Shown one piece after another: positions 25,110-28,905 of a DNA stretch of 64,000 nt; position 1 is the first letter of the stretch; the number at the start of each line of letters is the position of its first letter. The DNA is taken from NCBI GenBank assembly GCA_964489445.1, contig CAZAYU010000005.1:4799-68798 (forward strand). The letters are read 5' to 3'. This stretch comes from an uncultured Planctomycetia bacterium. GTDB lineage: Bacteria; Omnitrophota; Gorgyraeia; Duberdicusellales; 4484-171. A program made the translations under genes and the position numbers. The notes under the pieces were generated by a model. The model did no database searches and was not told where the DNA came from. It was given only the letters and a program-made list of their open reading frames with translations.

Positions 25110-25814
25110 CTACTTTCGTATTTCACTAGAGAGAATAATTGCTTCAGCAATCTCTTTCATCGGCACCCGTTTATCCATACTAGAGCGTCGTATTAATCTA
25201 TATGCCTCATCTTCAGTGGTCTTTTGCTCTTTCATTAATATTCCTTTGGCCTTTTCAATTTTTTTTCTTGCCTCTAGTTCCTCCTGAATTACCCGGGTTT
25301 TTACTATTAATTCAGTATTTTCGATTGCTACGGCTGCCTGATTAGCCACAGTGCTTAACAGGTCTACGTCACCACTTGTAAAATTGTAAGACTCGGTAGT
25401 ATAACAATTAATTACTCCAATCACTTTTTTTCTAACCATCATTGGCACACTCAACATCGAGGACAAATTTTCTTTTTTTGCTAATTTTTTTTCTTGATAC
25501 CGGCTATCGCTTAAAACATCATCAATGATTATATATTTCTTTTCCTTAGCAACTAACCCAACTATCCCCTCTCCAAGCTTAATACTTCGCTCCTTTAAGT
25601 ATTCACTACTCATTGCCTGAGTAGCTCTTATTTTTAATTCTTTTTTATTAACATCAAGAAGCCATAAGGCGCAGATTTTTGCCTTCATGACATTTGCGGT
25701 AAGCGTGACTATTAGCCTCAGGACATCTTCTAGGTATAGTTCACTAGTTATTGCCTTGCTAATTTTACTTAAAGCACCAATATATGCTTTATACGAAGAC
25801 CTTTTCACAGCCAT
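25110..25814 (-). CDS. GAF-ANTAR RNA-binding antitermination regulator.
   Basis: N-terminal GAF-like domain and C-terminal ANTAR ([50 protein letters not shown]). It lies immediately downstream of glnA. Confidence 0.75.
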
Positions 25815-27147: not shown

Positions 27148-27365
27148 GTTACTCCTTTCTTGGATATACTGATCTTGGATATCTAAAATTACTAAAGTAG
27201 TATTTTAGCAGGGTCTTTTGTTAAATCAACAAAAACATTAAACTAGTTTTTTGACCTTATTTACACTATGATACTTGTTTTCTACAGAAAATACATCTGG
27301 CCATATATATCATATTGTGCGTTATGTAGATACGAAATATTTGTGGCTAGTAAAATAATAGAAGA

Positions 27366-27986
27366 TTACTGAAAGAAATTGTCAGACAGGTTAGATAACT
27401 TTCCGCTGTTCTTTTTATGAGAGCTTAAGGAAAAAACTCTCTTGTACCCGTACACACTAAAAAGATGCTTCTGCAACTCAGACAGCGATCTGGCTTTAGT
27501 CTTTTTTAATACAGAATTATCAATCCAACAGTACATATCTCTATCTTTGAATATACAAATAGCATGACCGCCATTTGCACCCTGCATAGCAATAATCTCT
27601 GGCTTGTAGCCAAACACGCGAAGCACAGCTTCGTTTAAGAATGCATAATCTTCGCAATCTCCCTGTTTTCGTATTAAGGTTTCCTCGGGAGATAACCACT
27701 CATCGCCATTTTTATCTTTAAAGTAATCAATATTATCAGCAACCCACTTCATGTAATCATTTAAGGAGTGAATATTGTTATTACTTAGTAAGTCCATTAT
27801 TTTCTTATCTATCGGCACAGGACGGCAAACATACACCCCATTATTCTGAAATGTTTCTTGACGAATAACAAATCGTCGGGGTAAATTCTCTAAAGAATAG
27901 CTATCCGGAGATGCCCAACAACTGCTTGAGATTGTCATTCCCCCAAGAAACGCTACAATTACAAGAATTTTTTTCATACTATGCAT
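27366..27986 (-). CDS. Transglutaminase-like cysteine protease superfamily lipoprotein.
   Basis: Signal or lipobox SSC, then QGDCEDYAFL...GGHAICIF...D, a Cys-His-Asp transglutaminase-like core. Confidence 0.6.
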   Translation of the reverse strand: MHSMKKILVIVAFLGGMTISSSCWASPDSYSLENLPRRFVIRQETFQNNGVYVCRPVPIDKKIMDLLSNNNIHSLNDYMKWVADNIDYFKDKNGDEWLSPEETLIRKQGDCEDYAFLNEAVLRVFGYKPEIIAMQGANGGHAICIFKDRDMYCWIDNSVLKKTKARSLSELQKHLFSVYGYKRVFSLSSHKKNSGKLSNLSDNFFQ

Positions 27987-27991
27987 ACCTA

Positions 27992-28111
27992 TAAAAAAAG
28001 CCGAGTTAACCTATTTCTGGTAACTCGGCTATCCTTTAAACCTAATAAATGTTAGCTTAAATCGGATCCGTAGCTTTGCGTCCTCATGTTACCATGAGTT
28101 TGCCTTTTTCG
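27992..28111 (-). ncRNA. Candidate small RNA, unit A: a conserved 48-nt 5' module and a GNRA-capped hairpin, ending in an intrinsic terminator.
   Basis: On the minus strand: CGAAAAAGGCAAA[CUCAUG-GUAA-CAUGAG]GACGCAAAGCUACGGAUCC ... AAGGAUAGCCGAGUUA-loop-UAACUCGGC-UUUUUUUAU. No ORF is present. Confidence 0.35.
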
Positions 28112-28159
28112 AATATATATCTTTTGTCAGAATTATCCCTGACCAAATTAATTTTTAAA

Positions 28160-28353
28160 TAAAAAAGCCGAGCCACCAATCATTGGTAGCTCGGCTATCC
28201 TTGTCCATAATTAGCCTGATTGTCTTTAAGAGGCAACCCGGCTATCCTGTACTAATAAAAACGCCTAATTGCCTCCGATAACAACCGGCTATCCTTAATA
28301 GTTAAGGATCCGTAGCTTTGCGTCCTCATGTTGCCATGAGTTTGCCTTTTTCG
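28160..28353 (-). ncRNA. Candidate small RNA, unit B, paralogous to unit A: the same 48-nt 5' module (loop GCAA), then an 11-bp-stem intrinsic terminator.
   Basis: 5' module 28306-28353 is about 98% identical to 28064-28111. Two extra AGGAUAGCCGG half-sites precede the terminator GCCGAGCUACC...GGUGGCUCGGC-UUUUUUA. Confidence 0.35.
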
Positions 28354-28527
28354 GATAATTCTTAATTTTCCAACCATATAAATATAACATATTTTACCAA
28401 TATTTCCCAATAACCAAGGTAATTAATTGACATCTTTCGAAAAATAACTAATAATAGAAAGCAAAAATACCAACAAACTATGATTTTATTTTTTCATGGT
28501 TCTTCGTTAAATCCTCTGGCCAAAAAA

Positions 28528-28905
28528 CTAACCTCTAAGGATCTTTCTACCACTTCTGCTTTTTGATAAATAATCAACGAGATCTTCAGGGACAGAGAGC
28601 ATAACATCATAAAACTTGCCGAAGCGTTCGCAACCAGGAGGATTGTGCTGGCGACACTTTAGCGGACGGTCAGAATAGATATCACACTTATCCTTACTAT
28701 TCAGATACATACATCGTCCTTCTACCAGCTGATACCAACGGCGATTGCGGATATAAACCTGAACAGTATCAAAATGAAGCTGCCACTTAAGATCCTCCAC
28801 CTCTGCCTGATTCTCGGGTTTACCGATATCCATAGCTAGATTGCGGCAGCATATCGCTGGGCAATCTTTACAGCTGTATTTTGTTTTTTCTTTTGCCTTT
28901 TTCAT
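28528..28905 (-). CDS. YkgJ/UPF0153-family Fe-S or Zn-binding protein (CxxCxxCC).
   Basis: CKDCPAICC at the N-terminus and additional Cys in ...DKCDIYSDRPLKCRQ..., typical of the putative zinc/iron-chelating domain. Confidence 0.65.
   Translation of the reverse strand: MKKAKEKTKYSCKDCPAICCRNLAMDIGKPENQAEVEDLKWQLHFDTVQVYIRNRRWYQLVEGRCMYLNSKDKCDIYSDRPLKCRQHNPPGCERFGKFYDVMLSVPEDLVDYLSKSRSGRKILRG

Follow-up and report, generated by a model that had tools for sequence, protein, structure and literature searches.

What is the role of a 540-bp region that holds no recognizable gene and carries the same 48-nucleotide (nt) module twice? The region (positions 27987-28527) lies within a 64,000-nt stretch of contig CAZAYU010000005.1 from an uncultured bacterium; this whole stretch is referred to below as the window. 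An earlier note, made from the letters alone, had proposed a duplicated small regulatory RNA (sRNA) or an array of RNA- or protein-binding repeats. As judged from sequence and predicted structure, the region consists of two complete class-I cyclic di-GMP (c-di-GMP-I) riboswitches in series, each followed by its own intrinsic terminator. The structured, duplicated, minus-strand unit with a GNRA-capped hairpin and a terminator was thus correctly recognized, and the free-standing sRNA or protein-binding array gives way to cis-acting riboswitches. We consider it likely that the leader as a whole is a tandem c-di-GMP-class riboswitch that acts by transcription termination.

The genomic setting provides the first clue. 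The flanking genes had been described as convergent and unrelated; both lie on the minus strand, a YkgJ-type gene upstream (28528-28905) and an open reading frame (ORF) downstream (27366-27986), and the region is therefore the 5′ leader of ORF 27366-27986. Read along the minus strand, the leader runs from aptamer 1 through terminator T1, aptamer 2, and terminator T2 to the gene. The region had also been called free of ORFs: mechanically, a 52-amino-acid (aa) ORF starting with TTG can be read at 28252-28410, and nothing supports it as a gene.

A covariance-model scan of the whole window against Rfam, a check that the earlier note had suggested for both units, returned exactly two matches, both in this region, on the minus strand, at full length, and within the c-di-GMP-I clan CL00126. 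The upstream unit (unit 1, 28355-28276) was matched by RF03168 at 70.0 bits (gathering threshold 65.9, E-value 4e-13), and the downstream unit (unit 2, 28113-28015) by RF03167 at 68.8 bits (gathering threshold 59, E-value 3.5e-14). Three other models of the clan also scored above threshold at these sites. Both units show the conserved sequence and the two-hairpin structure of the c-di-GMP-I (GEMM-I) class and, as in riboswitches of this class, they are located in a 5′ untranslated region (UTR), in sense orientation to the gene, and their expression platforms compete with the aptamers.

The two 48-nt modules (28064-28111 and 28306-28353), which indeed differ by a single mismatch and which a repeat finder extended to 52 nt at 96% identity, correspond to the 5′ half of the aptamer, namely P1a, a hairpin capped by a GYAA tetraloop, and the P1b 5′ strand. 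Each module contains the J1 junction AAAAAG, a GC...GC clamp, P1a with its tetraloop, GGACGCAAAG, and the P1b 5′ strand AGCUACGGAUCC. The P1b 3′ strand begins with GGAUAGCC, and GGAUAGCCG represents that start including the conserved AG bulge. The mismatch falls, as observed before, in the loop of a 6-bp hairpin (CUCAUG/CAUGAG) and gives GUAA or GCAA on the minus strand. It had been read as a covariation-like signal: it does fit a structured RNA; being confined to the GYRA loop type, however, the change is neutral and alters no base pair, hence is not covariation.

Aptamer 1 (28274-28355, minus strand), delimited by the RF03168 match and a pairing table and closed by a 3′-strand copy that we term module a, is formed by P1 (UCCGA at 28355-28351 with UCGGA at 28278-28274), P1a (28340-28325, GCAA loop), and P1b (28317-28306 with 28294-28283). 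Aptamer 2 (28015-28113, minus strand), delimited by the RF03167 match and a pairing table, has its P1a at 28098-28083 with a GUAA loop. The ligand of c-di-GMP-I riboswitches is contacted by G20, A47, and C92 (Vc2 numbering). All three are canonical in aptamer 2, which has an AC junction. The aptamer 1 pocket has G20 and A47, and its position 92 depends on the 3′ strand that closes it: with module a it is a U, the junction past P1b reading GUUA with no C92 in any register, and with modules b or c it is a C. In Vc2, the C92U mutation lowers the affinity for c-di-GMP without abolishing it (bioRxiv 10.1101/617340).

Vc2 (GEMM-I, RF01051) and the two units share the two hairpins, the GNRA-capped P1a, the AG bulge of P1b (GGAU-AG-CC), and the conserved core GGCAAAC...GGACGCAAAGC, and the three binding-site nucleotides of Vc2 are all found in unit 2 and, with closure b or c, in unit 1. 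Unlike Vc2, unit 1 has GUUA in place of A91-C92 in its nearest closure, and the loops on P1b are long: that of unit 2 measures 29 nt, and that of unit 1 would reach about 105 nt with module c as the closing strand. The top-scoring models are RF03167 and RF03168 here, and closure a of unit 1 shares U92 with the consensus of the latter. The predicted ligand is c-di-GMP.

The predicted structures are specific to the minus strand, because G-U pairs in P1b and T1 turn into A-C mismatches on the opposite strand. In folding, another check suggested by the earlier note, the 401-nt leader reached a z-score of -9.7, and none of 100 dinucleotide-preserving shuffles was equally stable. The 41-nt core of the module occurs twice in the window, as compared with zero copies expected from shuffles. 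The motif GGATAGCC occurs four times, the number first counted, always on the minus strand and within this region (about 1.1 copies expected anywhere in the window).

Both units end in a strong minus-strand intrinsic terminator, as had been proposed; T1 was supported by a terminator scan, T2 by its inverted repeat, and both by folding in isolation. T1 (28157-28200, minus strand) is identical to module c, folds in isolation at -24.8 kcal/mol, and has a 14-bp stem (28196-28166, eight G-C pairs) followed by the U-tract UUUUUAUUU. T2 (27992-28034, minus strand), identical to module d, is a 10/10 inverted repeat that folds in isolation at -17.3 kcal/mol; its stem (28030-27999) is followed by U7, and it ends 6-15 nt 5′ of the start codon. 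In unit 2, GGAUAGCCGAGUUACC does double duty: in aptamer 2 it supplies the P1b 3′ strand, the junction, and P1, and in T2 it forms the 5′ arm. Similarly, module c contains the P1b 3′-strand copy GGAUAGCCGAGCUACC with a canonical AC junction (C92), and its GCCGAGCUACC is the 5′ arm of the T1 stem. This sharing of the aptamer 3′ strand with the terminator 5′ arm recurs upstream of two homologues of the regulated gene (loci L007 and L009), and pairing in the terminator stems of T1, T2, and L007 is kept through compensatory C-G to U-A changes.

Since the terminator 5′ arm is shared with the aptamer 3′ strand, ligand binding should block termination, so that each unit would be an ON switch; we regard this direction as probable for both units. 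In each unit, the P1b 3′ strand, the pocket junction, and P1 (GGAUAGCCGAG(C/U)UACC) are the same nucleotides as the terminator 5′ arm. In the mechanism we propose, the more stable terminator hairpin would form when ligand is absent, and transcripts would end at T1 (about 210 nt) or at T2 (about 380 nt). Once c-di-GMP binds, the shared strand would be retained by the aptamer, the terminator would be blocked, and the polymerase would read through. The gene would be expressed only when both switches are open, which may give a steeper, AND-like response to rising c-di-GMP. For unit 2, the calculated aptamer-closed state lies 5.4 kcal/mol above the terminator state.

The gene under this predicted control (27366-27986, minus strand; 203/206 aa) encodes a putative secreted protein with a transglutaminase-like cysteine-protease fold, as indicated by Pfam, sequence profiles, and the predicted fold. 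The ATG at 27977 is a likelier start (27366-27977) than position 27986. The protein combines a signal peptide with a transglutaminase-like domain (Pfam PF04473 and PF01841); its match to PF06035 (BTLCP/LapG) is below threshold (19.7 versus 27 bits). The Cys of GDCEDYA and the His of HAIC are invariant, and the aspartate of WIDN, at the third triad position, is only semi-conserved. By sequence profile, the nearest solved structures in the Protein Data Bank are those of LapG (4u65_E, E-value 4e-6, and 4fgo). The predicted fold (pLDDT 77) is nearest to the CPR-C4 protease 7ob6 (TM-score 0.52) and to a putative cysteine protease of Cytophaga, and it aligns to LapG (4fgo) with a TM-score of about 0.41-0.45.

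The protein family is rare (seven clusters), and its association with the riboswitch extends beyond this genome. A c-di-GMP-I aptamer, or its 3′ part, was found upstream of homologues in L007/L008 (57% identity), L009 (46%), and L014 (38%). The last of these, recovered by scanning a genome collection with the protein, is a metagenome-assembled genome of Omnitrophota with an upstream RF01051 aptamer scoring 54.3 bits. The gene family thus has such an aptamer upstream in at least three lineages besides this one, which probably belong to the Omnitrophota. The proteins neighboring our gene likewise have their closest named relatives in Candidatus Omnitrophota. No riboswitch was detected upstream of the more distant homologues L011-L013, L033, and L034, and the association therefore appears limited to one subclade. 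A motif search of the window's ORFs for GGDEF, EAL, and HD-GYP signatures gave nothing convincing.

Both the regulatory class and the tandem design are known; the lineage is new, and the type of gene fits earlier reports. The closest precedent is Bc3-5 of Bacillus thuringiensis (Zhou et al. 2016), a triple-tandem c-di-GMP-I riboswitch that is predicted to switch transcription on. Its terminator incorporates the binding-site C together with P1 and a portion of P3, and in experiments it regulated a reporter with greater stringency, and more digitally, than one unit did (PMC4759541). Bc3-5 and the present leader are alike in having near-identical complete riboswitches in series within one 5′ UTR, each followed by a rho-independent terminator of its own, in drawing the terminator 5′ arm from the binding-site C, P1, and part of the second aptamer helix, and in their predicted ON logic. 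They differ in the number of units (three versus two), in phylum, and in the regulated gene; in addition, the switching strand is present in two extra copies in the upstream unit here, a feature not described for Bc3-5.

As for the regulated gene, tandem c-di-GMP-I riboswitches are statistically enriched and, in Bacillota, are found before COG1305 (yebA) transglutaminase-like putative cysteine proteases (PMC12452182). The riboswitch class, the tandem layout, and the broad superfamily of the regulated protein are the same here, and our leader would thus be an example from outside the Firmicutes of a recurring pairing between tandem c-di-GMP-I riboswitches and transglutaminase-fold proteases. 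Unlike the Bacillota yebA genes, it belongs to another phylum and precedes a small (~200 aa) secreted DUF553-type domain. In the Lap system of Pseudomonas and Legionella, c-di-GMP inhibits LapG post-translationally, by way of the receptor LapD. There too, c-di-GMP is tied to a transglutaminase-fold cysteine protease (periplasmic in Lap), and LapG is the nearest solved structure by sequence; unlike in Lap, control here would operate on the RNA, with a predicted activating effect. Because the BTLCP match is below threshold, our protein is not a demonstrated LapG orthologue. The annotation that replaces the sRNA or repeat assignment is thus a specific one, predicted c-di-GMP control of a secreted protease-like enzyme, in an uncultivated and probably Omnitrophota lineage in which second-messenger signaling is essentially unstudied.

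The sole element without precedent is the set of repeated closing-strand modules in unit 1, and even with these the finding is not categorically new. The P1b 3′ strand is present three times in unit 1 (modules a, b, and c, at 28294, 28247, and 28200) and once in unit 2 (module d, at 28034). The earlier note had recorded extra AGGAUAGCCGG half-sites 45-46 nt apart; they are present, spaced exactly 47 nt, and they are copies of the P1b 3′ strand, the strand that also serves as terminator 5′ arm. All four 3′ modules can pair with the single 5′ strand, with differences that are Watson-Crick or wobble only. Modules b, c, and d give the canonical junction with C92, and module a does not. Moreover, each 47-nt module holds a complement to its own 3′ strand and folds in isolation as a hairpin.

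In module a (28248-28294, minus strand; -8.8 kcal/mol in isolation), the P1b 3′ strand, GGAUAGCC-GGUUG, is accompanied by a partial complement of itself, GGCAAUUAGGC, and then by GUUUUUAUU. The module tail AATAAAAACGCC matches that of T1 at 92%, and GGCGUUUUUAUU is a diverged T1-tail copy; by sequence, module a looks like a decayed terminator module. Module b (28201-28247, minus strand; -11.9 kcal/mol in isolation) has the P1b 3′-strand copy GGAUAGCCGGGUUGCC, a canonical GC junction, and the complement GACAAUCAGGCU. The shared complement, hairpin fold, and T1-like tail suggest that these are paralogous terminator modules, of which a and b have lost terminator strength. The modules are too diverged for Tandem Repeats Finder, and their homology was assigned from repeat-finder families D2, D4, and D6 together with an alignment by eye.

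Unit 1 would thus be an expanded form of the simple unit, in which modules a and b are inserted between the aptamer 5′ half and the terminator-linked copy c. Minimum-energy and centroid folds of the ligand-free RNA predict a long hairpin, H2 (28213-28290, minus strand), in which AGCCGGUUGUU (28290-28280) pairs with GACAAUCAGGCU (28224-28213) and GGAGGCAAUU (28276-28267) with GGUUGCCUCU (28238-28229), and which pulls module a off aptamer 1. Folding of successively longer prefixes placed this event in an order. At 84-92 nt, the minimum-energy fold of the nascent RNA is aptamer 1 with module a as its closing strand and a P1 of 5 bp; at 148-164 nt, H2 forms and module a is stripped; at 178-190 nt, the freed 5′ strand and module c form a canonical aptamer with H2 inserted in the P1b loop; and from 196 nt onward, T1 prevails unless the aptamer is stabilized. 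According to these models, the nascent RNA would first close aptamer 1 with module a, in a pocket without C92, and H2 would then strip module a and pass the 5′ half to module c, whose canonical pocket competes with T1.

Given that T1 forms even with closure a locked, we prefer the reading in which closure c would be the regulatory ON switch, like unit 2, and modules a and b would serve as a scaffold or timer. Selection on this arrangement is suggested by the L007 locus, where GGAUAGCCGGGUUGCCUC of module b (18/18), AAAGACAAUCAGG (13/13), and module c are kept while the spacers differ: the retention of modules b and c and of the relay strand at only 57% protein identity argues for selection rather than debris. 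Several observations weigh against this reading, and against the ON-type tandem switch of which it is part. The best-formed aptamer of unit 1 (closure a, with its 5-bp P1 and 70 bits) does not overlap T1; when closure a was enforced in a constrained fold, T1 still formed, in which case no ON response would follow. Unit 1 closed by module c lies 13 kcal/mol above the T1 state, so that switching at T1 must rely on ligand energy and kinetics. A weak promoter-like site (28159-28132) lies between T1 and aptamer 2. Finally, the comparative data are thin, as the species offers an invariant leader and the contigs of L007 end within theirs.

A stronger claim would be that unit 1 represents a new kind of expression platform, in which one 5′ half is served by three interchangeable closing strands, spaced 47 nt apart and each with its own complement. 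We hold this to be doubtful. If it were true, the sensing helix would be passed from a low-affinity closure lacking C92 to a canonical, terminator-coupled closure, and the relay of strands could act as a kinetic timer or as a three-state, band-pass c-di-GMP sensor. If functional, the modules would lend themselves, as a compact natural system, to studies of how riboswitches exchange strands co-transcriptionally. A scan of metagenome contigs with GGATAGCCGGGTTGCCTC yielded 29 loci, among which neither a second case of extra 3′ modules nor an orthologous leader was found; these loci were other GEMM-I aptamers, including long arrays, or chance matches in coding sequence. We also considered direct blocking of T1 by the freed strand (3b), and rejected it after a manual check and constrained folds gave only 4-6 bp with T1.

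Among the alternatives, the one that survives best makes unit 1 itself a three-state switch, in which an early closure a leaves T1 free (stop) and a late closure c blocks it (go); combined with an ON-type unit 2, the outcome would be a c-di-GMP response that is band-pass or timed. It draws on the same features that trouble the preferred reading, since closure a, which leaves T1 intact when enforced, is the one with the best P1 and the top Rfam score. It is further supported by the predicted order of closure a, H2, closure c, and T1 along the growing transcript, by the retention of modules b and c and of the GACAAUCAGG strand in L007, and by the reduced affinity retained by Vc2 C92U (bioRxiv 10.1101/617340). 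Yet the succession of states is a prediction from nearest-neighbor energies, module a resembles a decaying terminator copy, modules a and b may be tolerated debris, and the L007 contigs are cut at module a, so that its conservation is not visible there. On balance, we find the three-state switch unlikely.

Improbable, too, is the possibility that the units are, or additionally act as, trans-acting sRNAs, whether as terminated leaders of ~210 and ~380 nt or as an independent unit 2. The strong terminators would let stable short transcripts build up at low ligand, the promoter-like site at 28159-28132 precedes unit 2, and a short RNA containing a riboswitch is known for Vc2 (bioRxiv 10.1101/617340). 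Against this, both units lie in sense orientation directly 5′ of the gene, and its homologues in at least three further lineages have riboswitches of this class; position and conserved gene association point to a role in cis. Promoter-like matches are, moreover, weak and common in this AT-rich DNA (14 found versus 6 expected).

The Rfam assignments themselves raise the question of whether the two aptamers bind different ligands, forming a two-input gate in which the G20/A47/U92 pocket of unit 1 would recognize, for example, 3′,3′-cGAMP through an A:U pair at position 92. The GUUA junction of closure a, with no C in any register, fits this idea, as does the placement of unit 1 nearest the U92-bearing UAU model, and an engineered G20A/C92U aptamer binds c-di-AMP (PMC7288161). 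However, G20 and A47 are canonical, and the 3′ strands b and c restore C92 on the same 5′ half. The 3′,3′-cGAMP riboswitches (GEMM-Ib) are reportedly defined by A at position 20, where both of our aptamers have G.

The variant labels also fail on inspection of the defining positions, which we took from the Rfam consensus lines. RF03167 (c-di-GMP-I-GGC), with the consensus GACGCGAA, needs a G at position 47; unit 2 reads GACGCAAAG, with an A at that position and a blank in the match line. RF03168 (c-di-GMP-I-UAU) needs U20 as well as U92; unit 1 reads AAAAAGGCAAAC against the model's aaUgCAAAc, with G20, and has U92 in closure a only. Two aptamers from other metagenomes (L050 and L040) that have the canonical A47 were likewise assigned to RF03167, and related c-di-GMP-I models are known from a published pipeline to recognize the same sequences (PMC9943018). 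Because both aptamers have G20 and A47, the "-GGC" and "-UAU" labels are, on sequence grounds, artefacts of competition between models, and neither unit falls into those variant classes. We therefore judge a two-ligand gate to be very unlikely. As a practical warning, these Rfam labels can land on aptamers with canonical binding-site nucleotides.

A REP/BIME-type extragenic repeat or a protein-binding array without RNA function, suggested by short intergenic repeats with dyad symmetry, can be set aside as virtually incompatible with covariance-model E-values of ~1e-13, compensatory changes in the terminator stems, and the restriction of the 41-nt core and GGATAGCC to one strand with no other copies in the 64 kb, by which the earlier note's distinction from a dispersed repeat was borne out.

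Within the population, the leader was found to be identical in 11 independent full-length metagenome contigs; two more contigs begin inside it, and one (L031) carries a single-nucleotide polymorphism (SNP). This sole polymorphism, at position 28296 of the window, replaces A with U in the RNA and falls in the apical extension of aptamer 1 P1b, which is not conserved. Since the leader-spanning contigs of the species are identical but for this SNP, there is no covariation within the population. Contigs from independent assemblies tend to break inside the leader: L007 and L008 share their break point, 81 nt upstream of the gene, and L028 and L029 stop at a distance of about 339 nt. Such breaks are expected from near-identical tandem modules, and leaders of this kind are probably under-represented in assembled metagenomes. 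An attempt to use synteny to recover the 5′ part that the L007 leader lacks found homologues of the upstream YkgJ-type gene in three contigs, none of them followed by the protease gene.

A candidate sigma-70-like promoter for the leader was identified by a consensus scan at 28381-28410 on the minus strand (TTGGGA, an 18-nt spacer, and (TG)TATATT). With 9 of 12 consensus matches in AT-rich DNA, it is weak, and the sigma-70 consensus may not be that of the host; transcription from it would start about 20 nt 5′ of aptamer 1. The best sigma-70-like match of the region is on the plus strand (28427-28455; TTGACA, a 17-nt spacer, AATAAT; 11 of 12) and is directed away from the riboswitches, antisense into the YkgJ-type gene. 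On the minus strand, this same segment matches the beginning of the aptamer module at 70%.

Between the units, an inverted repeat and the fold indicate a spacer hairpin (28124-28146, minus strand). Its loop, GGAUAAUUCU (28138-28129), is perfectly complementary over 10 nt to AGAAUUAUCC (28362-28353), which lies at the 5′ edge of aptamer 1. After read-through of T1, this pairing could clamp unit 1 and keep its repeats off unit 2; the complementarity could also be due to chance in AT-rich sequence.

Related aptamers elsewhere vary in architecture. Upstream of the 46%-identical homologue, L009 has a lone c-di-GMP-I aptamer (47-180; 37.8-39.8 bits) with two extra hairpins, ~70 nt in total, between P1a and P1b at the A47 junction, and aptamers of this lineage thus seem tolerant of insertions. 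Eight metagenome loci (L036, L037, L044, L047, L055, L060, L062, and L063) contain two to six adjacent GEMM-I-like aptamers with no terminators between them. These arrays read GCCAAACC...GGGACGGAAAGCC...GGAUAGCCGGGUUGCC, and some precede genes for signal-peptide proteins.

Downstream of the protease-like gene, the order protease-like gene, glnA, GAF-ANTAR, DUF1846, and greA is kept in L007 and mostly in L009, where a DeoC-like gene is inserted before glnA and the contig ends after GAF-ANTAR. In our window, the gene after glnA (25110-25814, minus strand) encodes a GAF-ANTAR regulator of the RNA-binding antiterminator type. The leader of the glutamine synthetase gene (27148-27365, minus strand) contains AUAUCCAAGA directly repeated twice just before the ribosome-binding site, and this repeat may be an ANTAR target.

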